A stretch of 13,190 nucleotides of DNA from a virus (lineage: Duplodnaviria > Heunggongvirae > Uroviricota > Caudoviricetes): the IMG/VR virus record IMGVR_UViG_2700989170_000010. One strand, given 5' to 3'. The position numbers were made by a program, and so were the translations under genes. This document shows positions 1-13,190 of the stretch, piece by piece. Numbering within the stretch: the first letter of the stretch is position 1; each line of letters opens with the position of its first letter. Below the pieces are notes generated by a model. The model did not search any database and was not told the origin of the DNA. It saw only the letters and a program-made list of their open reading frames with translations.

Positions 1-483
1 AATATCTGCGGCAGCGGGCTTGTAATGGGTTAAGTGATAACAGATGTCTGGAAATATAAGGGCAAATCCAGCATCATGTTCGAACACCACTCCAACATCT
101 GTTTGAACACCTGTTAAATTTCTCTCTTGTTTTGTTTGAACATCTGCTTCCTTTCTGCTTCTTCTGGCCTGAACAGATGCTTTTCCTGCGGCTGATTTTT
201 TGGTTAATTTTTCTCTGACAGATGCCAGATCTTCCTCAATCCGAAGATGCATCCATTCGTCGCCGTTATCACAAAAAAACTCCCGCAAGGATGGTTCAAC
301 ATCAACCCATCGCTCGTTAGTCAGACGGGCAATTTTTGCCAACCTGTTTTTGGGTATTGGCTTTCCTGTTTGCCAGTAATTGAACATCAGCAACAAATAC
401 GCGCCGTGCTCCTCTGCTGACAAATGCATGGTGTCAGCCAGGTAATCAGCTATGTACAGTTGCATGTATGGTAATGCGGCCAT
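1..483 (-). CDS. DUF1376-family phage/prophage protein (replication-module type), N-terminal 161 codons; 3' end runs off the window start
   Basis: Absent from the supplied ORF track because it runs off the window. Reverse-strand translation from ATG (complement of 481-483) is open to position 1: MAALPYMQLYIADYLADTMHLSAEEHGAYLLLMFNYWQTGKPIPKNRLAKIARLTNERWVDVEPSLREFFCDNGDEWMHLRIEEDL... This matches the YIxDYLxDT...EEHGAY...W signature I associate with DUF1376. Family assignment is from memory. Confidence 0.65.
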   Translation of the reverse strand, partial: MAALPYMQLYIADYLADTMHLSAEEHGAYLLLMFNYWQTGKPIPKNRLAKIARLTNERWVDVEPSLREFFCDNGDEWMHLRIEEDLASVREKLTKKSAAGKASVQARRSRKEADVQTKQERNLTGVQTDVGVVFEHDAGFALIFPDICYHLTHYKPAAADI

Positions 484-580
484 AATTGCCCCGTATGATG
501 CTACCCGGTTGCTTAGAATAAGTGAGGTAGCCTGAGTTTAACGGACACTCCTTCCTGAAATAGAATGGCATCAGAAGGAG

Positions 581-590
581 NNNNNNNNNN
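581..590. other. assembly gap (10 N), contig join of unknown true size
   Basis: Run of 10 N. Sequence on the two sides belongs to unrelated contexts (phage gene versus curA upstream region). Confidence 0.9.
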
Positions 591-706
591 GGATTCCTCG
601 ATGAAATTATTGCGTGTTGCAGAGGGGATGTGACGGCTGCAAACAAAACCAATCCCGTGAGCCTGCTACTATTGATGGATTCATGCCAAAAGCACAGGAG
701 AGCATT

Positions 707-1806
707 ATGGGGCAACAAAAGCAGCGTAATCGACGTTGGGTTCTGGCCTCGCGTCCACATGGCGCACCGGTTCCGGAGAATTTCCGTCTTGAAGAAGATG
801 ATGTCGCCACACCGGGTGAAGGACAGGTGTTACTGCGCACAGTTTATTTGTCCCTGGACCCGTATATGCGTGGACGTATGAGCGATGAGCCATCTTATTC
901 ACCGCCGGTTGATATTGGCGGCGTGATGGTCGGCGGTACGGTGAGCCGTGTCGTGGAGTCGAATCATCCTGATTATCAGCCTGGCGACTGGGTGCTGGGC
1001 TACAGTGGATGGCAGGACTATGACATATCCAGTGGTGATGACCTGGTGAAACTTGGCGATCATCCGCAAAATCCATCGTGGTCGCTGGGTGTGCTGGGGA
1101 TGCCAGGCTTTACCGCTTATATGGGGCTGCTGGATATCGGTCAGCCTAAAGAGGGCGAAACGTTGGTGGTAGCTGCGGCGACAGAACCAGTGGGGGCGAC
1201 GGGGGGGCAAATCGGCAAACTTAAAGGGTGCAGAGTGGNNNNNNNNNNNNNNNNNNNNNNNNNNNNNNNNNNNNNNNNNNNNNNNNNNNNNNNNNNNNNN
1301 NNNNNNNNNNNNNNNNNNNNNNNNNNNNNNNNNNNNNNNNNNNNNNNNNNNNNNNNNNTGTTTGCCTTGATCACCACGCGGACGATTTTGCCGAACAACT
1401 GGCGAAAGCGTGCCCAAAAGGTATTGATATCTATTATGAAAACGTGGGCGGTAAGGTATTTGATGCAGTGCTACCATTACTTAATACATCTGCGCGCATT
1501 CCCGTTTGTGGCTTAGTGAGCAGCTATAACGCTACAGAGCTACCACCCGGTCCGGATCGTTTACCCCTGTTGATGGCAACGGTGCTGAAAAAACGTATTC
1601 GCTTGCAAGGGTTTATTATCGCTCAGGATTATGGTCACCGCATCCATGAGTTTCAGAAGGAGATGGGGCAATGGGTGAAAGAGGATAAAATCCACTACCG
1701 CGAAGATATTACTGATGGTTTAGAGAATGCGCCACAGACGTTTATCGGCCTGCTGAAGGGTAAAAACTTCGGCAAAGTGGTGATCCGCGTCGCGGGTGAT
1801 GATTAA
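707..1806 (+). CDS. curA: NADPH-dependent curcumin/dihydrocurcumin reductase CurA (YncB), medium-chain dehydrogenase/reductase family; coding sequence interrupted by N-run 1239-1358
   Basis: ATG at 707 preceded by AGGAGA (694-699). Translation MGQQKQRNRRWVLASRPHGAPVPENFRLEEDD...GQIGKLKGCRV, then after the N-run VCLDHHADDFAEQLAKACPKGIDIYYENVGGKVFDAVLPLL...GKVVIRVAGDD, stop TAA 1804-1806. Matches E. coli CurA as I recall it. The ORF track splits it into 614..1516 and 1228..1806 only because of the N-run. Confidence 0.88.
1239..1358. other. assembly gap (120 N) inside curA
   Basis: 120 N. Flanking codons (…CRV before, VCLDHH… after) imply about 58 nt of real sequence is missing, so the N-run length is a placeholder and not a measured size. 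Confidence 0.9.
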
Positions 1807-1828
1807 AGTTTCAACGGCGGGGGGAGCC

Positions 1829-1940
1829 NNNNNNNNNNNNNNNNNNNNNNNNNNNNNNNNNNNNNNNNNNNNNNNNNNNNNNNNNNNNNNNNNNNNNNNN
1901 NNNNNNNNNNNNNNNNNNNNNNNNNNNNNNNNNNNNNNNN
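1829..1940. other. assembly gap (112 N) in the curA-mcbR intergenic region
   Basis: Run of 112 N between the curA stop and the mcbR upstream sequence. Confidence 0.9.
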
Positions 1941-2060
1941 ATTGTTCTGCTGCTAATAACAACAAAGGTGGGTGGTTTATGATTATTCACTTTAATACAC
2001 TAGGTGAACTCCTTCTGCCATGCAGGCAGGGTTGGACAGAAAACACGCGAAGGAATTAAA

Positions 2061-2726
2061 ATGCCTGGAACGGGAAAAATGAAACATGTCAGTTTGACTC
2101 TGCAGGTTGAGAACGACCTGAAACATCAGCTTAGTATTGGCGCATTAAAACCTGGCGCACGCCTGATTACTAAAAATCTGGCGGAGCAATTAGGTATGAG
2201 TATTACACCTGTGCGTGAAGCATTATTACGTCTGGTTTCGGTGAATGCGCTTTCTGTCGCACCTGCACAAGCATTTACAGTACCGGAAGTGAGGCAAAGT
2301 CAGTTAGACGAAATCAATCGGATCCGCTACGAACTGGAATTAATGGCAGTTGCCCTGGCTGTTGAAAACCTCTCCTCGCAAGACATAGCAGAACTTCAGG
2401 AATTGCTCGGGAAATTACAGCAGGCGCAAGAAAAGGGCGACATGGAACAAATCATTAATGTGAACAGGCTATTTCGCTTAGCGATTTATCATCGCTCAAA
2501 TATGCCCATCCTGTGTGAGATGATTGAGCAACTGTGGATCAGGATGGGACCTGCTTTACATTATCTTTATGAAGCGATTAACCCAGCGGAATTACGGGAG
2601 CGCATAGAAAACTATCATCTATTACTCGCTGCGTTAAAAGCAAAAGACAAAGAGGGATGCAAACATTGTCTTGCTGAAATTATGCAACAAAATATTGCTA
2701 TTTTATACCAGCAATACAATCGTTAA
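2061..2726 (+). CDS. mcbR: GntR/FadR-family transcriptional regulator McbR (YncC)
   Basis: ATG 2061 with GAAGGA 6 nt upstream. Translation MPGTGKMKHVSLTLQVENDLKHQL...LAEQLGMSITPVREALLRL (GntR-type HTH) ...AEIMQQNIAILYQQYNR, stop TAA 2724-2726. The ORF-track start at 2004 is an upstream in-frame extension; 2079 is an alternative start. Confidence 0.82.
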   Translation: MPGTGKMKHVSLTLQVENDLKHQLSIGALKPGARLITKNLAEQLGMSITPVREALLRLVSVNALSVAPAQAFTVPEVRQSQLDEINRIRYELELMAVALAVENLSSQDIAELQELLGKLQQAQEKGDMEQIINVNRLFRLAIYHRSNMPILCEMIEQLWIRMGPALHYLYEAINPAELRERIENYHLLLAALKAKDKEGCKHCLAEIMQQNIAILYQQYNR

Positions 2727-2731
2727 ATTAA

Positions 2732-2753
2732 ATGCCCGGCAAATACCGGGCAT
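2732..2753. terminator. perfect 8-bp stem / 6-nt loop hairpin after mcbR; putative bidirectional terminator
   Basis: ATGCCCGG (2732-2739), loop CAAATA, CCGGGCAT (2746-2753). Lies 5 nt after the mcbR stop. The flanks are A/T-rich, more so on the minus-strand side. Confidence 0.5.
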
Positions 2754-2760
2754 CAAGTAA

Positions 2761-2863
2761 TTACTCAAATCGCCACGCAATATTCATGCCGACACCATAA
2801 TTTCGTTCATCGATAGGAATTAAAACCCCAAAAAGATTAAAAAAACACCACAAAACGGATGTT
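2761..2863 (-). CDS. possible 3' end of a convergent gene (TonB-dependent receptor-like C-terminus, yncD-like), truncated by the N-run
   Basis: Minus-strand frame is open from the gap to stop (complement of 2761-2763): ...FNLFGVLIPIDERNYGVGMNIAWRFE*. The NLF and RNYG...WRF motifs resemble TonB-dependent receptor C-termini, and in E. coli K-12 yncD is convergent with mcbR (recall). Only 34 codons are visible, so this is weak. Confidence 0.3.
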
Positions 2864-2873
2864 NNNNNNNNNN
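2864..2873. other. assembly gap (10 N); boundary between chromosomal curA-mcbR contig and phage head-module contig
   Basis: Run of 10 N. Gene content changes abruptly across it. Confidence 0.9.
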
Positions 2874-2874
2874 A

Positions 2875-3384
2875 ATCATCAAACTGTCTTGGATAGAAGC
2901 CGCAGTGGATGCGCACAAAACGTTAAATTTCGAACCCAGTGGAAGAAAGCGTATTGGCTTTGACGTGGCTGACAGTGGTACAGATAAGTGCGCTAACGTT
3001 TACCGTCACGGATCCGTTGTTTTCTGGGCCGACGAATGGAAGGCCAAAGAAGATGAATTACTGAAGAGCTGCCAGCGTACTTATCAGGCGGCGCTGGAGC
3101 GTGAAGCAGATATTGTTTACGACTCTATCGGTGTTGGTGCGTCTGCCGGTGCTAAATTCTCTGAAATTAACGCTGACCGGAAGAGCGAGAACGCATACGC
3201 GCGACGTGTGAATTACCAGAGGTTTAACGCCGGTGCTGGTGTGCATGAGCCAGATGACGAGTACAACGGCATCCCCAACAAAGACTTTTTCGCAAATCTT
3301 AAGGCTCAGGCATGGTGGCTGACCGTTTCAGAAATACGTTTAACGCCATTAACAACGGAGAACAGTATCCTGTGGATGAGCTGA
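2875..3384 (+). CDS. terminase large subunit, C-terminal nuclease-domain segment (frame A); 5' part of the gene lost in the gap
   Basis: Frame is open from the first base after the gap: IIKLSWIEAAVDAHKTLNFEPSGRKRIGFDVADSGTDKCANVYRHGSVVFWADEW...FFANLKAQAWW. The GxDxAxxGxD motif is typical of terminase large-subunit RNaseH-like nuclease domains. The ORF track starts it at GTG 2905. Confidence 0.7.
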   Translation: MIKLSWIEAAVDAHKTLNFEPSGRKRIGFDVADSGTDKCANVYRHGSVVFWADEWKAKEDELLKSCQRTYQAALEREADIVYDSIGVGASAGAKFSEINADRKSENAYARRVNYQRFNAGAGVHEPDDEYNGIPNKDFFANLKAQAWWLTVSEIRLTPLTTENSILWMS

Positions 3385-3605
3385 TCAGCATAGATTCTCG
3401 TTGTCCGTTGCTTGAAAAGCTGAAACTGGAACTGACAACACCTCATCGTGATTTCGACCGTAACGGACGTGTGATGGTCGAAAGTAAAAAAGACCTCGCA
3501 AAACGCGAGATACCGTCACCAAACGTTGCTGATGCATTCATTATGGCCTTCGCGCCAATCGATACATCGCTGGATATCTGGGAACAGCTGGGGAGACAGG
3601 CCTGA
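3312..3605 (+). CDS. terminase large subunit, extreme C-terminal segment (frame B), continuation of the previous segment after a frame change
   Basis: Translation ...ADRFRNTFNAINNGEQYPVDELISIDSRCPLLEKLKLELTTPHRDFDRNGRVMVESKKDLAKREIPSPNVADAFIMAFAPI... matches the conserved C-terminal tail of terminase large subunits (…G.v.vESK.D.kKR...SP..ADA..maf). Stop TGA 3603-3605 overlaps the portal ATG (TGATG). Confidence 0.65.
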   Translation: MVADRFRNTFNAINNGEQYPVDELISIDSRCPLLEKLKLELTTPHRDFDRNGRVMVESKKDLAKREIPSPNVADAFIMAFAPIDTSLDIWEQLGRQA

Positions 3606-5071
3606 TGGCACGAAACAAACAAGCCCTGCGGCGAACTGTGCAGGCCACAGCTGATGGTTATGAGAATTTTATTGCCCGAGTAGGGATGCAGACACCTAAC
3701 CAGCACTCAGCATCCACCTACCGGGCTAATTTCACCAGTCGTAACCGCATGCTGGTGGAATGGTCCTATCGTTCATCCTGGATCATCGGCGAAGCAGTCG
3801 ATGCTATCCCGGATGATATGACCCGCAAAGGCATTCGCATCACTTCGGAAATTGATGCAAAAGATCGTGGCATTCTCGAATCACAACTGGATGAGTTGCA
3901 AATCTGGGATGCGCTGAATGACGTGCTGAAATGGTCGCGCCTCTACGGCGGCGCGGTGGGTTTCATCATGATTGAGGGGCAGGCACCAATGACCCCGCTG
4001 CGACCCGAAACCATCGGTAAGGGCAAGTTTAAGGGGATTCTCCCGCTCGACCGCTGGATGGTCGACCCGGCACTGACCCGCCGCATTAAAGATATGGGGC
4101 CGGACCTGGGTAAACCTGAGTTTTACGATGTGGTGACCACAGCAACGGGAATTCCTGCCTGGCGCATTCATCACAGTCGCCTGATTCGCTTTGATGGCGT
4201 CACGTTGCCATTTCAGCAGAAGATGACCGAGAACGAATGGGGAATGTCGGTTGTAGAGCGTATCTGGGATCGTCTTACCGCGTTCGACAGCGCTACTGTC
4301 GGCGCGGCGCAGCTGGTCTACAAGGCGCATTTGCGTACCTACAGCGTGGAGAAGCTACGCGAGCTTATCGCACTTGGTGGTCCTGCGTATGAAGCGTTGC
4401 TGAAGAATATCGACCTGATTCGACAGTTCCAGAGTAATGAAGGCATGACGCTCATGGACTCGCGGGATAAGTTTGAAACCCATCAGTACAGCTTCAGTGG
4501 TCTGGATGACATCCTTTCGCAGTTTGCAGAACAGATTAGTGGCGCTGTTGGTATCCCACTGGTGCGGTTGTTCGGACAGTCCCCGAAAGGATTTTCTACC
4601 GGTGATGCAGACCTTGCCAACTATTACGATCGCATCAGTTCGTTGCAGGAGAGGCGTTTACGTCTTCCGGTGCGGCGGATACTGGACATCATGCATCGTT
4701 CGGAACTTGGCAAGCCGCTGCCGGACGATTTCACGTTTGAGTTTAACCCGCTCTGGCAAATGTCTGATGTCGATCGCTCAACGGTGGCGTTAAACACCAC
4801 CAACGCAATCAGTACGGCGATGGGTGATGGTCTGATGACACTGAAAGCCGCTATGACTGATTTGCGAGAAAATTCTGACGTAACCGGCATAGGGGCATCC
4901 ATTACCAACGAGGACATCGAGAATGCCGAAGATGAAGCGCCGCCCGGCATCGGCGAACCTGATGACGAACCGCAGGAGCCGTCAGGCGGAAATCCGGTAT
5001 CGAACCAGCCTACGCAGGATAGCGAGGGCGGTCGGAGACATCGTAAATGGTCGCTACGATGGTTCAAATGA
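3605..5071 (+). CDS. phage portal protein (putative; DUF1073/portal-like) with acidic Pro-rich C-terminal tail
   Basis: 488-aa ORF immediately after the terminase with a translationally coupled start (TGATG). Size and position fit a portal. C-terminus EDEAPPGIGEPDDEPQEPSGGNPVSNQPTQDSEGG is a disordered acidic tail. Confidence 0.7.
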   Translation: MARNKQALRRTVQATADGYENFIARVGMQTPNQHSASTYRANFTSRNRMLVEWSYRSSWIIGEAVDAIPDDMTRKGIRITSEIDAKDRGILESQLDELQIWDALNDVLKWSRLYGGAVGFIMIEGQAPMTPLRPETIGKGKFKGILPLDRWMVDPALTRRIKDMGPDLGKPEFYDVVTTATGIPAWRIHHSRLIRFDGVTLPFQQKMTENEWGMSVVERIWDRLTAFDSATVGAAQLVYKAHLRTYSVEKLRELIALGGPAYEALLKNIDLIRQFQSNEGMTLMDSRDKFETHQYSFSGLDDILSQFAEQISGAVGIPLVRLFGQSPKGFSTGDADLANYYDRISSLQERRLRLPVRRILDIMHRSELGKPLPDDFTFEFNPLWQMSDVDRSTVALNTTNAISTAMGDGLMTLKAAMTDLRENSDVTGIGASITNEDIENAEDEAPPGIGEPDDEPQEPSGGNPVSNQPTQDSEGGRRHRKWSLRWFK

Positions 5072-5705
5072 CAGTATCACGGAAATTATTGCGGCGCTGG
5101 AGCGTTACAGTGAAATCATCACCCCCTGGGCGACAAAGGTCGCGGAAAACTTTACTGCGGACCTAACCCGGCAGAACGAGAAAGTTTGGCGGCAACACAG
5201 CAAGAACATCAGTCGCGAGCTCCGCAATCTTGTGGAAAGCGCTCCTGTGGGCCAGGTGATGCAATCCATCATCGCCGAACAGGTCAAGTACATCAAATCT
5301 CTGCCTCTCGAGGCCGCAGACAGGGTGTACGACATCCAGAACAAAGCGATAGAGGCTGTTGTCACCGGTGGTCGGGCGGAGCAGTTTGCTAAAGAGATTG
5401 CATCTACCGGCGATGTTGCTAAGTCTAGGGCCGATCTGATTGCCCGAACGGAACTGGGAAGAGCAACGGGCGCGCTGGATATGGCCCGAGCGATAGCTAT
5501 TGGCTCGGATGGTTATATTTGGCGTACAGCCGATGATGGCGATGTCCGAGATTCCCACGATCACATGAAAGGTAAATTCGTCCGCTGGGATTCACCTCCA
5601 ACTTTGGACGGCATGACCGGCCACGCGGGCGAGCTGCCAAACTGCCGCTGCTATAAAGAGATCGTGTTTGTTCGCGTTCCATTCGCAATGAAAAGGGCAG
5701 CATAA
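4923..5705 (+). CDS. phage head morphogenesis / minor head protein, Mu gpF-like (SPP1 gp7-like)
   Basis: C-terminal region ARTELGRATGALDMARAIAIGSDGYIWRTADDGDVRDSHDHMKGKFVRWDSPPTLDGMTGHAGELPNCRCY carries the Phage_Mu_F hallmarks (ARTE..., D.RVR.SH, P.CRC). Start is uncertain (ATG 4923 or ATG 4962). This frame is closed upstream at TAG 4890-4892. Confidence 0.8.
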   Translation: MPKMKRRPASANLMTNRRSRQAEIRYRTSLRRIARAVGDIVNGRYDGSNDSITEIIAALERYSEIITPWATKVAENFTADLTRQNEKVWRQHSKNISRELRNLVESAPVGQVMQSIIAEQVKYIKSLPLEAADRVYDIQNKAIEAVVTGGRAEQFAKEIASTGDVAKSRADLIARTELGRATGALDMARAIAIGSDGYIWRTADDGDVRDSHDHMKGKFVRWDSPPTLDGMTGHAGELPNCRCYKEIVFVRVPFAMKRAA

Positions 5706-5708
5706 CCC

Positions 5709-6929
5709 ATGAAATACTTTTTTGAGACCAGGCTCGGGGAAACCCGATACCGCCTGGCTGACGGCTCGTTGCTGTGCAAAGACGTGCCGATAGGACGAAC
5801 AGGTAAGCAGCTCTATGGTGCTGATGACCTGCCAAAACTGAAACCCGATAAGTTCGTTGAAATAGTCGTCACGCGTTCTCCTGAGCAGGTATTCCATCCG
5901 GCCACGCTTGCCTCATTCGAAGGGATGAGCATCACGATCCTGCATCCTGAAGATGAAAACGGGAATGTGCGGCTGGTAAATCCCGAGAACTGGAAAGTGC
6001 TTGCTGTCGGGCACCTCCAGAATGTCCGGCGCGGGACGGGTGAGCAGTCTGATTTGATGCTGGCTGACCTTATCGTCAAAGACGAAAGCGCCATTCAGCT
6101 TATCGAAGATGGCCTGCGCGAAGTGTCGTGCGGCTATGACGCGGAGTACGAGCAGACCGAGCCAGGTAAAGCCGAGCAGGTCGATATTACCGGAAACCAT
6201 GTGGCTCTTGTCCCTAAAGGCAGAGCCGGAAATCGTTGTGCAATTGGAGACAGAGACACAATGGCAAATCAAAAGAAAAACTGGTGGAACCGCATGCGTG
6301 CGGCCATCAAGACAGGAGATGCCGACACCATGAACGAACTGGTGGAGTCGGCTCCCGCATCGGTTACAGGAGATGAGGGGGATTTGCCGCAGGGCGTTAA
6401 TCTCAACATCAACCTGTCCCCGCAGCAACCACTACCGGACAAAGCACCAGAGATGGGCGGAGATCCAACCGGCGACAGTGATGATGACCTCAAAACATTA
6501 CTGAAAGCCCTGCTGGCTAAGCTGGAAAGAAATGCCACGGGCGATAACGATAATAAGCCTGACGATAATCCGACCGGTGACGGCGAGGACGATGAAGAGG
6601 AAACCACGATTACTGGTGACTCAGCCTGGCGTGCCGAAGTTATCGTTCCGGGTATCGATCTGAGCCGTAAGATGAAACCGACCGCGTTCAAACGCGAGGT
6701 TCTGGCTTCTGCTGACAAAACGCTGGTTCGCCAGATAGTCGGTGATGCGGATATCCGCAAATTACCGAAACAATCGGTCGACATGGCGTTTAATGCCGTG
6801 TCTGAGGTTGCCAAAGGGCGAAACACCCGCGCCACCACCGGCGATGCACAGCGCCTAAACATGGGCATGACCAGTATCGCTTCCCTGAACAAACAAAACG
6901 CTGAATTCTGGGCAAACCGTAAAGGGTAA
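5709..6929 (+). CDS. putative prohead scaffolding-type protein (possibly DUF2213-like N-terminal domain) with acidic TGD-repeat low-complexity core
   Basis: 406-aa ORF between the MuF and capsid genes. Residues about 200-305 are strongly acidic and contain repeated TGD motifs (TGDAD, TGDEGD, PTGDSDDD, ATGDNDN, PTGDGEDDEEE, ITGD) plus an LKTLLKALLAKLE helix-like segment. Function is inferred from position and composition; the family name is a tentative recall. Confidence 0.5.
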   Translation: MKYFFETRLGETRYRLADGSLLCKDVPIGRTGKQLYGADDLPKLKPDKFVEIVVTRSPEQVFHPATLASFEGMSITILHPEDENGNVRLVNPENWKVLAVGHLQNVRRGTGEQSDLMLADLIVKDESAIQLIEDGLREVSCGYDAEYEQTEPGKAEQVDITGNHVALVPKGRAGNRCAIGDRDTMANQKKNWWNRMRAAIKTGDADTMNELVESAPASVTGDEGDLPQGVNLNINLSPQQPLPDKAPEMGGDPTGDSDDDLKTLLKALLAKLERNATGDNDNKPDDNPTGDGEDDEEETTITGDSAWRAEVIVPGIDLSRKMKPTAFKREVLASADKTLVRQIVGDADIRKLPKQSVDMAFNAVSEVAKGRNTRATTGDAQRLNMGMTSIASLNKQNAEFWANRKG

Positions 6930-6932
6930 AAA

Positions 6933-7289
6933 ATGAATAATGTATTTCTGTACCGGATGCCTGTTGGCATTGCCGGGGCTGTCTCTCGCCCGCAGGACTT
7001 AACCGTCGAACCGGTGGTCCTTAAATCCGATAACGCCTTCGCTGCCTATGGCCTGGCTGGTAAATACGATGATGACGGTTTTTTCGTGCCGCTGGCAGAT
7101 GGTGATACCGCAGACAAGGTGAAGGGGATCTACGTGCGCCCTTATCCGACCACGTCGCAGCCGGACATGGTTCGCCAGGTGGGAACAGGCAAGAACTTCC
7201 CGGGCGACGCCATGAAGCGTGGCTACGTGACCGTTAATCTCGGTTCTGATTTTGATGCCAGCACTATCAAAAAAGGCGATCTCCACTGA
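6933..7289 (+). CDS. small head-associated protein (possible decoration/accessory protein), apparently truncated by a frameshift at an A6 run
   Basis: 118-aa ORF MNNVFLYRMPVGIAGAVSRPQDLTVEPVVLK... ends at TGA 7287-7289, 13 nt after AAAAAA (7269-7274). The +1 frame continues open to 7422. Confidence 0.55.
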   Translation: MNNVFLYRMPVGIAGAVSRPQDLTVEPVVLKSDNAFAAYGLAGKYDDDGFFVPLADGDTADKVKGIYVRPYPTTSQPDMVRQVGTGKNFPGDAMKRGYVTVNLGSDFDASTIKKGDLH

Positions 7290-7422
7290 TGAATCCATCA
7301 AAGTGCCTCTGGGTGGATTCATGTCCACGTCAGTCAGTGGCAAAAACGTGGTGCTGACCAACGCTGAATTCACAGGTGCCGGTGATGCTGACGGCAATGC
7401 AGAAATTTCCTGGAAGATTTAA
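7270..7422 (+). CDS. probable frame-shifted C-terminal continuation of the 6933 gene
   Basis: The frame entered by skipping one base in the A6 run reads ...AISTDESIKVPLGGFMSTSVSGKNVVLTNAEFTGAGDADGNAEISWKI* with stop TAA 7420-7422, immediately before the RBS and ATG of the capsid gene. It fills an otherwise anomalous 144-nt gap in a tightly packed operon. Confidence 0.45.
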   Translation, partial: KKAISTDESIKVPLGGFMSTSVSGKNVVLTNAEFTGAGDADGNAEISWKI

Positions 7423-7433
7423 GGAACAGACGA

Positions 7434-8375
7434 ATGATTACTTTTGATCAGGCAACCGTTGACAGCTCTGGTGCCTTTCTCATCGGGGAGCTGGAGAGAC
7501 TCGACCAGACGCTGAACCTGCCACTGGTGGGGTACACCTGGAGCCGCGATATTCAACTGCGTGAAGACGCCTCCATCGCAGATGACATTTCCAGCTGGAC
7601 GAATACCAGCTTCGCCGCTGCGGGTACTGGCGCAAATCCGAATGGAAAAAACTGGGTAGGCAAAGACTCAACCGCTATTGCTGGCGTGAACGTGGATATC
7701 GGCAAATCCGGTAACCCGCTGAACCTGTGGGGGATGGAACTTGGCTGGACGGTCATAGAATTGCAGGCTGCTCAGCAGGTCGGCCGCCCGATTGATACGC
7801 AGAAGTATGACGGTATGCAACTGAAATGGCAGATGGATAACGATGAACAGGTATATGTTGGCGATTCCGCATTAAACCTGAAAGGCCTTGTTACCCTGGA
7901 CGGCGTGCCTGTCAACAACGCTGCCAAAACGTGGGCAACCTCAACACCGGACGAAATCCGCGCAAGCATTAACCAGGTGCTGTCTGATGCGTGGGCCGCT
8001 TCTGGTTACTCTGTGGTTCCGCGTGATTTGCTGATCCCGCCTGAGCAGTTTGCTCTGTTGTCCAGCATCATCGTTTCATCTGCAGGTAACCAGTCCCTGT
8101 TGACGAACCTTCAGACCAACACCATCAGCTATCACCAGAACGGTGTTCCGCTGAATATCCGCGCGGTTAAATGGCTGAAAGGCCGTGGTGTGGGGAATAA
8201 GGATCGCATAGTTGCGTACACCAACGATAAAAAATACGTCCGCTACCCGCTGGTTCCGCTTCAGAGCGTGCCGGTGCAGTATCGCGGTCTGTATCAGATC
8301 GTCACTTACTACGGCAAGCTGGGTGCAGTCGAGCCAGTGTACAAAGAAACCATTTCGTACGTTGATGGCATTTAA
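7434..8375 (+). CDS. putative major capsid protein (possibly DUF2184-like)
   Basis: 313-aa ORF with RBS AAGGA 8 nt upstream, positioned after the scaffold-like and decoration-like genes and followed by a GC-rich hairpin. Translation MITFDQATVDSSGAFLIGELERLDQTLNLPLVGYTWSRDIQL... Family assignment is from memory and unverified. Confidence 0.5.
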   Translation: MITFDQATVDSSGAFLIGELERLDQTLNLPLVGYTWSRDIQLREDASIADDISSWTNTSFAAAGTGANPNGKNWVGKDSTAIAGVNVDIGKSGNPLNLWGMELGWTVIELQAAQQVGRPIDTQKYDGMQLKWQMDNDEQVYVGDSALNLKGLVTLDGVPVNNAAKTWATSTPDEIRASINQVLSDAWAASGYSVVPRDLLIPPEQFALLSSIIVSSAGNQSLLTNLQTNTISYHQNGVPLNIRAVKWLKGRGVGNKDRIVAYTNDKKYVRYPLVPLQSVPVQYRGLYQIVTYYGKLGAVEPVYKETISYVDGI

Positions 8376-8382
8376 CAGCCAC

Positions 8383-8403
8383 ATGGCCCCCTGGCGGGGC
8401 CAT
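8383..8403 (+). terminator. GC-rich perfect hairpin (8-bp stem, 5-nt loop) 8 nt downstream of the capsid gene stop
   Basis: ATGGCCCC (8383-8390), loop CTGGC, GGGGCCAT (8396-8403). No T-tract follows, so it is a putative attenuating or stabilising stem-loop and not a canonical intrinsic terminator. Confidence 0.45.
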
Positions 8404-8416
8404 TAAGGATGACCCG

Positions 8417-8662
8417 ATGGCAAAAAATGATGCAGTAATACACGTACATACCCCGTTTGTGCTCACGCTTCCCGACGGTTCTCGGCGCGAGTTTGTTAAA
8501 GGCCGTCATGTTGTGGAGGAAGACGTTGCCACGCACTGGTTCACTCGTGCGCACGCGGAAGTATCCGTTGGCAAAGCCACAGACGCGCGTAACGAGGTAA
8601 AAAATGCCAAAGAATTGAGGTGTACTGGCAATAGCGGACACTACCATTTGTTCTTTTTTTAA
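8417..8662 (+). CDS. small hypothetical phage protein downstream of the capsid gene; C-terminus near the contig end is unreliable
   Basis: 81-aa ORF with good RBS (AAGGA, 7-nt spacer): MAKNDAVIHVHTPFVLTLPDGSRREFVKGRHVVEEDVATHWFTRAHAEV... It ends ...HYHLFFF* in a T-run 11 nt before the N-run. Confidence 0.45.
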   Translation: MAKNDAVIHVHTPFVLTLPDGSRREFVKGRHVVEEDVATHWFTRAHAEVSVGKATDARNEVKNAKELRCTGNSGHYHLFFF

Positions 8663-8673
8663 GCAGCCATCTG

Positions 8674-8683
8674 NNNNNNNNNN
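8674..8683. other. assembly gap (10 N); boundary between phage contig and yfaL-nrdAB chromosomal contig
   Basis: Run of 10 N. Gene content changes across it. Confidence 0.9.
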
Positions 8684-8845
8684 CGTAATGCCTGAAAGGC
8701 TTTGCCTGCTGGCGTGACAACTCGCTTTGATATCATATCCCTGGCATAAATCAATGGCCGCCGCGACACCGTTAGCAGAGAAAAGAGATGCAATCATTGA
8801 CGGGAGTAGAGATAAATACTCCTTGCGTAGAAAGATAATCCGCAT
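8684..8845 (-). CDS. yfaL: 5' end (54 codons) of a divergently transcribed gene, consistent with autotransporter adhesin yfaL; truncated by the N-run
   Basis: Minus-strand ATG (complement of 8843-8845), then MRIIFLRKEYLSLLPSMIASLFSANGVAAAIDLCQGYDIKASCHASRQSLSGIT running into the gap. Signal-peptide-like N-terminus. Divergent from nrdA about 700 bp away, as for yfaL in E. coli K-12 (recall). The ORF-track extension across the Ns to 8372 is an artefact. Confidence 0.5.
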
Positions 8846-9378
8846 ATTAATCTGACCATCATTTTATATAAGACGGCATATTTAAACGCATTATACAATA
8901 TGGGTTATCTTTCTTTTGTAAATTGTCCAACCCGATGCAATGGCTATTTTGTTATTATTTGATGAATAATATCAGTGCGTCATAATTCAAGTTAATAACC
9001 TTAAGGGATACCAGTTATATTTAAACTAAATTAAAGTAATGAATAATTTTCTTATAATATAAGGTAAATTAACAAAATGGCTTCGCATTTAACAATAACC
9101 GAATAGAAAACAACCATTTCGACATCAACAATCGCTTACATTCGCTTATATATTGACCACAACTGATACATCAGATTATGTGATGACTCGTGCTTAGATC
9201 AATTTTTGCAATCATTAGCAAAAAGATTAATAAACCATCTATATCAATTTATCCAACCTATTCTGCCGTTCAAGAAATCGCCGAACAGTTATTTTTAACA
9301 AATTTTTCTCTTCCCATTGACTTTCCCGGACACCTTGTCTGACCTAAGGTGCGCGAAAGCCACTTTTTCCTTCCTGAG

Positions 9379-9399
9379 TTATCCACAAAGTTATGCACT
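9379..9399 (+). promoter_or_regulatory. two adjacent DnaA boxes upstream of the nrdA promoter
   Basis: TTATCCACA (9379-9387) is a perfect DnaA-box consensus. TTATGCACT (9391-9399) matches 7 of 9. DnaA control of nrdAB is established E. coli biology. Confidence 0.7.
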
Positions 9400-9427
9400 T
9401 GCAAGAGGGTCATTTTCACACTATCTT
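9399..9427 (+). promoter_or_regulatory. putative sigma70 promoter of nrdA (-35 TTGCAA, 17-nt spacer, -10 TATCTT)
   Basis: TTGCAA at 9399-9404 and TATCTT at 9422-9427 with a 17-nt spacer. Implies a leader of about 105 nt before the nrdA ATG at 9541. Confidence 0.55.
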
Positions 9428-9463
9428 GCAGTGAATCCCAAACATACCCCCTATATATAGTGT
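9417..9463 (+). promoter_or_regulatory. two NrdR boxes (repressor operators), one overlapping the -10 and one about 30 bp downstream
   Basis: Box 2 CCCCTATATATAGTGT (9448-9463) matches the NrdR palindrome core CTATATATAG with a TGT flank. Box 1 CACACTATCTTGCAGTG (9417-9433) is a weaker palindromic match over the -10. Confidence 0.6.
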
Positions 9464-9540
9464 TCTAAGCAGCTTCCCTTACTACAGGTAGTCTGCATGA
9501 AACTATTGCGGAAAGAATTCCAAAAACAGGTACGACATAC

Positions 9541-11826
9541 ATGAATCAGAATCTGCTGGTGACAAAGCGCGACGGTAGCACAGAGCGCATCAATCTCGAC
9601 AAAATCCATCGCGTTCTGGATTGGGCGGCAGAAGGACTGCATAACGTTTCGATTTCCCAGGTCGAGCTGCGCTCCCACATTCAGTTTTATGACGGTATCA
9701 AGACCTCTGACATCCACGAAACTATTATCAAGGCTGCCGCAGACCTGATCTCCCGTGATGCGCCGGATTATCAGTATCTCGCCGCGCGCCTGGCGATCTT
9801 CCACCTGCGTAAAAAAGCCTACGGCCAGTTTGAGCCGCCTGCGCTGTACGACCACGTGGTGAAAATGGTCGAGATGGGCAAATACGATAATCATCTGCTG
9901 GAAGACTACACGGAAGAAGAGTTCAAGCAGATGGACACGTTTATCGATCACGACCGTGATATGACCTTCTCTTATGCTGCCGTTAAGCAGCTGGAAGGCA
10001 AATATCTAGTACAGAACCGCGTGACCGGCGAAATCTACGAAAGCGCCCAGTTCCTTTATATTCTTGTTGCCGCGTGCCTGTTCTCGAACTACCCGCGTGA
10101 AACGCGCCTGCAATACGTGAAGCGTTTTTATGACGCGGTTTCCACATTTAAAATTTCGCTGCCGACGCCAATCATGTCCGGCGTGCGTACCCCGACTCGT
10201 CAGTTCAGCTCCTGCGTACTGATCGAGTGCGGTGACAGCCTGGATTCCATCAACGCCACCTCCAGCGCGATTGTGAAATATGTTTCCCAGCGTGCCGGGA
10301 TCGGCATCAACGCCGGACGTATTCGTGCGCTGGGCAGCCCGATTCGCGGTGGCGAAGCGTTCCATACCGGCTGTATCCCGTTCTACAAACATTTCCAGAC
10401 AGCGGTGAAATCCTGCTCTCAGGGCGGTGTGCGCGGCGGTGCGGCAACGCTGTTCTACCCGATGTGGCATCTGGAAGTGGAAAGCCTGCTGGTGTTGAAA
10501 AACAACCGTGGGGTTGAAGGCAACCGCGTGCGTCATATGGACTACGGGGTACAAATCAACAAACTGATGTATACCCGCCTGCTGAAAGGTGAAGATATCA
10601 CCCTGTTCAGCCCGTCCGACGTACCGGGGCTGTACGACGCGTTCTTCGCCGATCAGGAAGAGTTTGAACGCCTGTATACCAAATATGAGAAAGACGACAG
10701 CATCCGCAAGCAGCGTGTGAAAGCCGTTGAGCTGTTCTCGCTGATGATGCAGGAACGTGCGTCTACCGGTCGTATCTATATTCAGAACGTTGACCACTGT
10801 AATACCCATAGTCCGTTTGATCCGACCATCGCGCCAGTTCGCCAGTCTAACCTGTGCCTAGAAATTGCCCTGCCGACCAAACCGCTGAACGACGTCAACG
10901 ACGAGAACGGTGAAATCGCGCTGTGTACGCTGTCTGCTTTCAACCTGGGCGCAATTAATAGCCTGGATGAACTGGAAGAGCTGGCGATTCTGGCGGTTCG
11001 TGCACTTGACGCGCTACTGGATTATCAGGATTACCCGATCCCGGCCGCCAAACGTGGAGCGATGGGGCGTCGTACGCTGGGTATTGGTGTGATTAACTTC
11101 GCTTACTATCTGGCGAAGCACGGTAAACGCTACTCCGACGGCAGCGCCAACAACCTGACGCATAAAACCTTCGAAGCGATTCAGTATTACCTGCTGAAAG
11201 CGTCTAATGAGCTGGCTAAAGAGCAAGGCGCGTGCCCGTGGTTTAACGAAACCACTTACGCGAAAGGGATCCTGCCGATCGATACCTATAAGAAAGATCT
11301 GGATGCCATCGCTAATGAGCCGCTGCATTACGACTGGGAAGCATTGCGTGAATCAATCAAAACGCACGGCCTGCGTAACTCCACGCTTTCTGCCCTGATG
11401 CCGTCCGAGACCTCTTCGCAGATCTCTAACGCCACTAACGGTATTGAACCGCCGCGCGGTTACGTCAGCATCAAAGCGTCGAAAGACGGTATTTTGCGCC
11501 AGGTGGTGCCGGACTACGAGCACCTGCACGACGCCTATGAGCTGCTGTGGGAAATGCCGGGTAACGATGGCTACCTGCAACTGGTAGGTATCATGCAGAA
11601 ATTTATCGATCAGTCGATCTCTGCTAACACCAACTACGATCCGTCACGTTTCCCGTCAGGAAAAGTGCCGATGCAGCAGTTGCTGAAAGACCTGCTCACC
11701 GCCTACAAATTCGGGGTCAAAACGCTGTATTATCAGAACACCCGTGACGGCGCTGAAGACGCGCAGGACGATCTGGTACCGTCAATCCAGGACGATGGCT
11801 GCGAAAGCGGCGCATGTAAGATCTGA
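9541..11826 (+). CDS. nrdA: class Ia ribonucleoside-diphosphate reductase, alpha subunit (R1)
   Basis: 761-aa [36 protein letters not shown]... with N-terminal ATP-cone and C-terminal ...[12 protein letters not shown], ending at TGA 11824-11826. Matches E. coli NrdA. Confidence 0.97.
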
Positions 11827-11835
11827 TATTGAGAT

Positions 11836-12035
<200 letters not shown>

Positions 12036-12059
12036 TTAAACTCCCAACAGGACACACTC

Positions 12060-13190
12060 ATGGCATATACCACCTTTTCACAGACGAAAAATGATCAGCT
12101 CAAAGAACCGATGTTCTTTGGTCAGCCGGTCAACGTGGCTCGCTACGATCAGCAAAAATATGACATCTTCGAAAAGCTGATCGAAAAGCAGCTCTCTTTC
12201 TTCTGGCGTCCGGAAGAAGTTGACGTCTCCCGCGACCGTATAGATTACCAGGCGCTGCCGGAGCACGAAAAACACATCTTTATCAGCAACCTGAAATATC
12301 AGACGCTGCTGGATTCCATTCAGGGTCGTAGCCCGAACGTGGCGCTATTGCCGCTTATTTCTATTCCGGAACTGGAAACCTGGGTCGAAACCTGGGCGTT
12401 CTCAGAAACGATTCATTCCCGTTCCTATACTCATATCATTCGTAATATCGTTAACGATCCGTCTGTTGTGTTTGACGATATCGTCACCAACGAGCAGATC
12501 CAGAAACGTGCGGAAGGGATCTCCAGCTATTACGATGAACTGATCGAAATGACCAGCTACTGGCACCTTCTGGGCGAAGGCACCCACACCGTTAACGGTA
12601 AAACCGTAACCGTTAGCCTGCGCGAGCTGAAGAAAAAACTGTATCTCTGCCTGATGAGCGTTAACGCGCTGGAAGCGATCCGCTTCTACGTCAGCTTTGC
12701 TTGTTCCTTTGCCTTTGCAGAACGCGAACTGATGGAAGGTAACGCCAAGATTATTCGCCTGATTGCCCGCGATGAAGCCCTGCACCTGACCGGTACTCAG
12801 CATATGCTGAATCTGCTGCGCAGCGGCGCGGATGATCCGGAGATGGCGGAAATTGCCGAAGAATGTAAGCAGGAGTGCTATGACCTGTTTGTCCAGGCGG
12901 CACAGCAAGAGAAAGACTGGGCGGATTATCTGTTCCGTGACGGTTCGATGATTGGTCTGAATAAAGATATTCTCTGCCAGTACGTTGAATACATCACCAA
13001 TATCCGCATGCAGGCAGTCGGTTTGGATCTGCCGTTCCAGACGCGCTCCAACCCGATCCCGTGGATCAACACCTGGCTGGTGTCTGATAACGTGCAGGTT
13101 GCTCCGCAGGAAGTGGAAGTCAGTTCTTATCTGGTCGGGCAGATTGACGCGGAAGTGGACACCGACGATTTGAGTAACTTCCAGCTCTGA
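12060..13190 (+). CDS. nrdB: class Ia ribonucleoside-diphosphate reductase, beta subunit (R2)
   Basis: ATG 12060 with AGGA 8 nt upstream. Translation [37 protein letters not shown]...[12 protein letters not shown], 376 aa. The ORF-track start at 11829 is an in-frame read-through of the REP array. Confidence 0.95.

Follow-up and report, generated by a model that had tools for sequence, protein, structure and literature searches.

Four unrelated, IS-broken chromosome pieces chained with 10-N spacers in a probable draft scaffold of Shigella flexneri

Results

The window, that is, the whole stretch of 13,190 nt analysed here (IMG/VR record IMGVR_UViG_2700989170_000010), is very probably an artefactual draft scaffold of Shigella flexneri in which four unrelated pieces of chromosome, each broken by an insertion sequence (IS), were chained with 10-N spacers. 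The gene neighbourhoods that cross these spacers are assembly artefacts, not biology. It would be false to infer an operon, an island or a "phage next to nrdAB" arrangement across join 1, 2 or 3 (Table 1). The curA-mcbR block may be treated as contiguous.

An earlier note on this DNA had described five N-runs, which we found to be 10, 120, 112, 10 and 10 bases long, and had named three gene blocks that were all recovered: curA-mcbR, a phage terminase, portal and head block (2874-8673 with its IS600 end) and yfaL'-ypaB-nrdA-nrdB. Positions 1-580, which that note did not cover, hold an IS2 end, a ydaU fragment and an IS600 end.

Table 1. Features of the window. Prophage gene families were assigned by Pfam.
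Position	Strand	Feature	Comparison or remark
1-70	+	IS2, last 70 nt, right terminus ...GGGCAAATCCA	identical to closed-genome IS2 right ends except position 59
71-522	-	ydaU fragment, Rac-type prophage, 452 nt	99.6% to annotated YdaU-family pseudogene of E. coli VL40 and FDAARGOS_944
523-580	+	IS600, first 58 nt, left end TGAGGTAGCC..., contig right overhang	58/58 to annotated IS600 copies
581-590	.	10-N join 1, false adjacency	closed-genome neighbours differ
591-2863	+	curA-mcbR sub-scaffold	99.7-100% to 10 closed S. flexneri loci
707-1806		curA	within sub-scaffold (+)
1239-1358	.	120-N run inside curA	true adjacency, wrong length, 58 nt missing
1829-1940	.	112-N run, curA 3' end and curA-mcbR spacer	true adjacency, wrong length, ~55 nt missing
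2061-2726		mcbR	within sub-scaffold (+)
~2762-2808	-	pqqU, short 3' remnant	
2809-2863		IS91-family end, 55 nt	element carries Y2_Tnp/Zn_Tnp_IS91 transposase
2864-2873	.	10-N join 2, false adjacency	closed-genome neighbours differ
2874-8615	+	prophage remnant	99.9-100% to closed S. flexneri; 99.3% to intact prophage of E. coli VL40
to 3384	+	terminase large subunit, 3' part	
3605-5071	+	portal	
4962-5705	+	Mu-F head morphogenesis	
5709-6929	+	DUF2213	
6933-7289	+	cement protein, shortened	
7434-8375	+	major capsid	
starts 8417	+	ORF truncated by IS600	
8616-8673	-	IS600, last 58 nt, right end, reverse-complemented, contig right overhang	58/58 to annotated IS600 copies
8674-8683	.	10-N join 3, false adjacency	closed-genome neighbours differ
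8684-13190	+	yfaL'-nrdAB piece	100% to four closed genomes, including S. flexneri 2a 2457T (AE014073.1), across 4,507 nt
8684-8845	-	yfaL 5' end	
9270-9413	-	ypaB	
9541-11826	+	nrdA	
12060-13190	+	nrdB	

Every inter-gap piece was 99.7-100% identical to closed S. flexneri chromosomes (2457T, AE014073.1; 8401, CP000266.1; CP033510.1; CP026788.1; and others). These chromosomes also carry the same IS insertions, namely IS2 upstream of curA, in the terminase gene and in yfaL, an IS91-family element after mcbR and an IS600 truncating the phage ORF. This near-identity and the common, lineage-specific insertion sites place the DNA in the S. flexneri chromosome. The best closed E. coli genomes were only 97-98.7% identical at mcbR and nrdAB, and the prophage block is 95% identical to the vB_EcoM-689R2 phage group. 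Complete E. coli genomes proved insufficient as the sole comparison: the core pieces reached 97-98.7% in a collection that holds no Shigella, and junction-specific queries of this collection ranked no Shigella-like genomes at the top.

Aligned separately to closed genomes, the pieces flanking each 10-N join were non-neighbours, as had been predicted. The earlier note had argued from E. coli K-12, where it placed curA-mcbR and nrdA some 0.8 Mb apart; this separation holds (curA starts at 1,519,027 and nrdA at 2,344,865 in MG1655, that is, 0.83 Mb apart), but the organism is S. flexneri, and in closed chromosomes of this species distances of 1-1.7 Mb separate the pieces, whose neighbours also differ; in one 1.6-Mb contig the distance is 164 kb. 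The order seen in the window occurred in none of them. We searched for the ydaU'-IS600 junction by a genome contig scan, which gave two closed genomes, and for the other joins by exact-protein look-ups, which covered 28, 26 and 36 long or closed contigs for the three markers. None of the three 10-N adjacencies was found in these 26-36 contigs per marker or in the two closed genomes carrying ydaU'-IS600. Look-ups of three ORFs that extend through N-runs (707-1516, 1228-1806 and, on the minus strand, 8372-8845) gave no match.

The true neighbours differ at all three joins. At join 1, the IS600 that follows ydaU' is succeeded by ycjY-tyrR-tpx-ycjG-mpaA, not by curA, in the closed genomes CP178302.1 and CP182556.1, and upstream of curA closed S. 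flexneri carries IS2 and mnaT. At join 2, the IS91-family element after mcbR leads into narY-narZ-narU in closed S. flexneri. mcbR and the phage block are more than 1 Mb apart in four closed chromosomes (for example, 1.80 vs 0.745 Mb in CP000266.1 and 0.53 vs 1.64 Mb in CP026788.1), the distance from mcbR to the phage ORF being 1.06-1.1 Mb in CP000266.1, CP026788.1 and CP007037.1; the 164-kb spacing noted above is that of mcbR and the phage block. At join 3, the IS600 after the phage block is followed in closed S. flexneri by Mu-like transposase remnants and dcuC-pagP-cspE-crcB-tatE-lipA, and the genes upstream of nrdA are ypaB, yfaL', IS2, the rest of yfaL, ubiG and gyrA. In CP033510.1, the phage ORF and nrdA map at 3.65 and 0.62 Mb, respectively, or 1.7 Mb apart on the circular chromosome.

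We observed directly that all six interior ends at the 10-N joins fall at IS termini. In three of them, the sequence starts 2 nt beyond the right terminus of an IS2: position 591, position 2874 (where the IS2 interrupts the terminase gene) and position 8684 (where it interrupts yfaL). Two others extend 58 nt into IS600 and the sixth 55 nt into the IS91-family element. The IS600 boundaries were located from the flanking sequences of several copies, and both ends matched PGAP-annotated IS600 of VL40 at 58/58 positions. IS600 is represented in the window by its termini only, without the transposase. The assignment to the IS91 family follows from the element in closed S. flexneri, which carries a PF04986/PF14319 ORF, and from the GTTC target, which immediately precedes the IS91-family end at two different copies. 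The IS2 end that opens the window is contiguous with ydaU' in two of the fetched loci (L004 and L005) and departs from them at position 59, where the A is private to this record, all 30 IS2 right ends of the fetched loci having G.

The two inner N-runs behave differently. The earlier note had called adjacency across N-runs unreliable; this stands for the three 10-N joins, but not for the 120-N and 112-N runs, whose flanks are collinear and in the same orientation in every closed genome, including E. coli O145 and 10 S. flexneri loci, and only the lengths are wrong. The flanks of the 120-N run map to positions 9297/9356 of locus L006 and 3648/3707 of L003, and those of the 112-N run to 4176/4232 of L003. 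By alignment, the sequence missing at the 120-N run is exactly 58 nt, in agreement with the approximate figure given before, and that at the 112-N run about 55 nt; the runs exceed these by 62 and 57 nt, respectively. The view that gap lengths are placeholders was thus borne out, and the gap lengths of this record are uninformative. The N-runs are not length-preserving masks, a reading that we rejected because 120 and 112 N fill true gaps of 58 and 55 nt and because 10 N would have to stand for at least 2.5 kb. Three X-to-G errors lie within the last 8 nt ahead of the 112-N run, at 1821-1825, and others occur at 1203 and 1228.

Discussion

The anatomy of the record suggests how the chain may have formed. 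The window is very probably the start of a short-read draft scaffold of S. flexneri, whose chromosome has approximately 230 insertion sequences that collapse during short-read assembly and make contigs stop at IS boundaries. Shigella reference chromosomes carry 229-373 IS each (PMC7373316 S1 Table). Four such contigs were very probably chained (IS2-ydaU'-IS600, the curA-mcbR sub-scaffold, the prophage head block and yfaL'-nrdAB), the 10 N representing a minimum-length spacer between contigs that do not adjoin in the chromosome. The two longer runs, of 120 and 112 N, are very probably gaps of another kind, low-coverage breaks within the truly contiguous curA-mcbR region, with lengths about twice the missing sequence. 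Their over-estimates of 62 and 57 nt are only loosely explained by this model.

The assembler was probably of the de Bruijn type with k = 59, because both IS600 overhangs measure 58 nt, the window starts 58 nt before A59 (the only private base of positions 1-580) and 58 and 55 nt are missing at the coverage gaps. What linked the contigs appears to be the IS2 right-end flank that all of them share, and a scaffolder would lay IS2-flanked contigs successively at its minimum gap, shortest first. Contig sizes climb along the chain, from 0.5 to 2.3 and 5.8 kb and then at least 4.5 kb for the last one, which the end of the window truncates. Of the 229 IS of S. flexneri 301, 29 are IS2 (PMC7373316 S1 Table), so that IS2 right ends make up 6.3% of IS ends. 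The chance of three consecutive left ends at an IS2 right terminus is approximately 2.5e-4, or 2e-3 with contig orientation left free.

These figures bear on the possibility that a submitter concatenated contigs arbitrarily, for example in file order, with 10-N spacers and no linking information. The fixed 10-N length, which carries no size information, and the unrelated closed-genome neighbours are both compatible with it. However, we consider it improbable, as it leaves unexplained the same-orientation IS2 right end at every chained contig, the missing left overhangs beside the kept 58-nt right overhangs and the monotonic rise in size.

Less probable still is that the order is real, IS-mediated rearrangements having joined the four blocks and each 10-N run hiding a collapsed IS copy. 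Inversions and translocations mediated by IS are documented between S. flexneri strains (Nie et al. 2006, PMC1550401), which makes a strain-specific order conceivable from comparison alone. Furthermore, in the closed genome LR213452.1, the IS2 ahead of the phage block has Rac-like genes on its left in place of the terminase 5' part. Yet none of the three adjacencies occurs in any closed genome read, and the IS2 copies between mnaT and curA, within the terminase gene and within yfaL are simple insertions into collinear DNA in every closed genome read. Genuine rearrangements also have their breakpoints at IS copies, but they recombine two copies of the same IS, whereas the joins of the window pair different IS families, the left sides being IS600 left, IS91-family and IS600 right and the right sides always IS2 right. 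As no single IS copy could bridge a join, a tandem pair of IS and two independent rearrangements would be required at each, three times within 13 kb. A real order, which we regard as very unlikely, would bring the Rac fragment, curA-mcbR, the prophage head block and nrdAB into some 20 kb through nested IS2, IS600 and IS91 rearrangements, the gaps concealing tandem IS pairs.

The least credible alternative is an ordering of contigs against a K-12-like reference: the backbone pieces do follow increasing K-12 coordinates (ydaU, which we take to lie in the Rac prophage at about 1.42 Mb, then curA at 1.52 and nrdA at 2.34 Mb), but the approximately 0.8 Mb of backbone that S. flexneri keeps between curA-mcbR and nrdA is absent, the phage block could not be placed in K-12, and the common IS2-right flank and trimmed left ends stay unexplained. 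Both this ordering and arbitrary concatenation were rejected, as neither accounts for the common IS2-right flank.

De Bruijn scaffolders such as Velvet use a minimum gap of 10 N and drop the first k-1 bases of each contig that they append. The window resembles their output in its minimum 10-N gaps, its right overhangs of k-1 = 58 nt, its missing left overhangs and the full left end of the first contig, and differs from it in the two further unique bases lost at each left end. This loss of exactly 2 unique nt is unexplained by a simple k-1 trim. The regular 58-nt overhangs, together with the common IS2 flank, offer a simple means of recognising such repeat-driven mis-scaffolding in other parts of this record and in comparable Shigella drafts. 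IS-bounded breaks are also a feature of short-read Shigella assemblies: in most assemblies of the look-up index, this mcbR lies on contigs shorter than 5 kb and this phage ORF on contigs of 5-10 kb, which are the units of the 2.3-kb and 5.8-kb pieces of the window; in the window, these separate contigs are further chained into one record with 10-N spacers.

Source of the window

Closed Shigella flexneri chromosomes, reached through a scan for an exact junction and look-ups of exact proteins, match every piece of the window at 99.7-100% identity. In 5,426 complete E. coli genomes, identity to the backbone pieces does not exceed 97-98.7%. Segment 8684-13190 matches strain 2457T (AE014073.1) at 100% across 4,507 nt, and CP033510.1 matches both this segment and 2874-8673 at 100%. 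Since every piece matches at this level, the source of the window is, judging by identity, an S. flexneri draft. The relevant comparison is therefore with S. flexneri rather than with the E. coli K-12 frame of the earlier note. The distance given there is correct: in MG1655, curA starts at 1,519,027 and nrdA at 2,344,865, 0.83 Mb apart.

Three of the five gaps are false joins

The five N-runs divide the called bases into six segments (1-580, 591-1238, 1359-1828, 1941-2863, 2874-8673 and 8684-13190). The N-run positions and the gene content of 591-2863, 2874-8673 and 8684-13190 were correctly described in the earlier note. The window starts at a contig start, and its last base completes the nrdB stop codon, indicating that the right edge reflects how the window was cut rather than where a contig ends.

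Features of the window (positions in nt)
Feature	Position	Remark
IS2 right end	1-70	
ydaU fragment	71-522	
First 58 nt of IS600	523-580	
N-run	581-590	10 N
curA-mcbR and pqqU tail	591-2863	
N-run	1239-1358	120 N
N-run	1829-1940	112 N
mcbR	2061-2726	
IS91-family element end	2809-2863	adjoining GTTC target
N-run	2864-2873	10 N
Phage terminase/portal/head block	2874-8673	
Last 58 nt of IS600	8616-8673	closes phage block
N-run	8674-8683	10 N
yfaL'-ypaB-nrdA-nrdB	8684-13190	

At the first 10-N join, the exact junction of IS2 end, ydaU fragment and IS600 start occurs in two closed genomes (CP178302.1 and CP182556.1), where IS600 is followed by ycjY-tyrR-tpx-ycjG-mpaA, not by curA; upstream of curA in closed S. 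flexneri are IS2 and mnaT. At the second, mcbR is followed in closed S. flexneri by an IS91-family element and then narY-narZ-narU, and lies 1.06-1.1 Mb from the phage block in CP000266.1, CP026788.1 and CP007037.1, and 164 kb from it in one 1.6-Mb contig. At the third, the IS600 closing the phage block leads in closed genomes to Mu-like transposase remnants and dcuC-pagP-cspE-crcB-tatE-lipA, while upstream of nrdA are found ypaB, the first 162 nt of yfaL, IS2, the remaining yfaL, ubiG and gyrA. The window's neighbours were not seen in the 28, 26 and 36 long contigs in which they were sought for three markers, nor was a closed genome with the window's order, which the earlier note had named as counter-evidence, found among these contigs.

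All interior contig ends at these joins are IS boundaries. Two of the right ends carry exactly 58 nt of IS600-left or IS600-right; the third carries 55 nt of the IS91-family element, or 59 nt with the conserved GTTC target included. The contigs at 591, 2874 and 8684 start exactly 2 nt past the IS2 terminus (...GGGGCAAATCCA); they lack the first two unique bases (AC, GC and TG in closed genomes) as well as any IS2 overhang. In every closed genome, the IS2 copies preceding them are simple insertions in otherwise collinear DNA (mnaT|IS2|curA, terminase|IS2|terminase and yfaL|IS2|yfaL). With an IS boundary on both sides of each join, each 10-N run replaces at least one IS2 and the remainder of another IS, and in reality spans megabase distances.

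Two gaps of wrong length

The flanks of the 120-N and 112-N runs map 58 nt and about 55 nt apart, respectively; E. coli O145 and ten S. flexneri loci have them collinear and equally oriented. The runs, overlong by 62 and 57 nt, are true adjacencies in which only the length is wrong. Thus, the claim that the window is a scaffold of non-syntenic pieces is supported, and its warning on adjacency holds for the 10-N joins but not for the two long runs, where the lengths are indeed placeholders. The missing sequences, checked for repeats, are not repeats. Compared to closed S. flexneri, the contig tips carry five base errors within 36 nt of the runs, every one to G (1203 T>G, 1228 T>G, and C>G, T>G and A>G in 1821-1825). 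They resemble the low-quality ends of reads more than true variants and, together with the non-repeat gaps, fit low-coverage breaks. The window's curA sequence should not be trusted close to the gaps.

Probable origin of the scaffold

Shigella short-read assemblies are well known to fragment at IS copies; most assemblies in the look-up index have the mcbR allele on contigs shorter than 5 kb and the phage ORF on those of 5-10 kb. Three independent 58-nt regularities, namely the two IS600 overhangs, the coverage gaps of about 58 nt and the spacing of A59, suggest that the assembler was of the de Bruijn type and used k=59. A59, the sole base in 1-580 that differs from closed genomes and all 30 other IS2 right ends compared (G), sits exactly 58 nt from position 1, as expected of a contig that opens with the first k-mer to include a private variant. 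Through this base, perhaps a true SNP of this IS2 copy and perhaps a read error, the orfB stop of IS2 reads TAA instead of TAG, and the first contig can extend 70 nt into IS2.

S. flexneri 301 carries 229 IS, of which 29 are IS2 (PMC7373316, S1 Table), so that IS2 right ends make up 6.3% of all IS ends. A run of three left ends at IS2-right would arise by chance at about 2.5e-4, or about 2e-3 with orientation free; the contig chain is therefore non-random. The first contig likewise abuts an IS2 right end, and contig size climbs from the first to the last (0.5, 2.3, 5.8 and finally at least 4.5 kb). In the simplest reading, a scaffolder would have linked contigs via their common IS2 flank, judged them overlapping, and placed them in series at a minimum gap of 10 N, each appended contig losing its left overhang. 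Velvet presumably writes scaffolds in this manner, with a 10-N minimum gap and the left overhang dropped. The extra 2 nt missing at each left end are not accounted for by this chaining.

Arbitrary concatenation of contigs is very improbable, as it leaves the common IS2 flank and the trimmed left ends unexplained. Even less credible is a genuine strain-specific order: S. flexneri does rearrange at IS copies, as documented (PMC1550401) and as also seen in LR213452.1, but in genuine events both partners are copies of one IS, and the window's joins pair ends of different IS families. Ordering against K-12, the least probable, fails on the same flank and trimmed ends as arbitrary concatenation. Nothing in the window's arrangement is biologically new, and any finding that crosses 581-590, 2864-2873 or 8674-8683 should be treated with caution.

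Additional observations

What remains of the prophage is decaying, with IS2 interrupting the terminase and other sequence in place of the tail genes beyond IS600. The cement-protein gene (6933-7289) encodes 118 aa in the window and most closed S. flexneri, compared to 168 aa in S. flexneri 8401 and E. coli VL40, which has an intact relative of the block. In closed S. flexneri LR213452.1 (locus L020, 1-3215), Rac-like recE, IS600, ydaE and rha precede the IS2 upstream of the phage block, standing where the terminase 5' part would be; this difference is a genuine IS2-associated rearrangement between strains.

The IS91-family element leaves only about 46 nt of pqqU, from the 3' end (window 2762-2863; 10804-13456 of comparison locus L006). 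Past this remnant it directly adjoins narY-narZ-narU in closed S. flexneri, so this lineage appears to have lost the genes that lie between pqqU and narY in K-12. The mcbR gene is an intact 221-aa allele, 100% conserved in closed S. flexneri; the 867 nt around it share at most 97% identity with any of the 5,426 complete E. coli genomes, far more divergent than adjoining curA (99.2-99.4%). Finally, segment 8684-13190 gave a median of 32 hits per E. coli genome and hence holds a short dispersed repeat. The repeat is probably of the REP type and located between nrdA and nrdB, in a spacer where a 44-nt difference separates S. flexneri/K-12 from another E. coli (locus L030).
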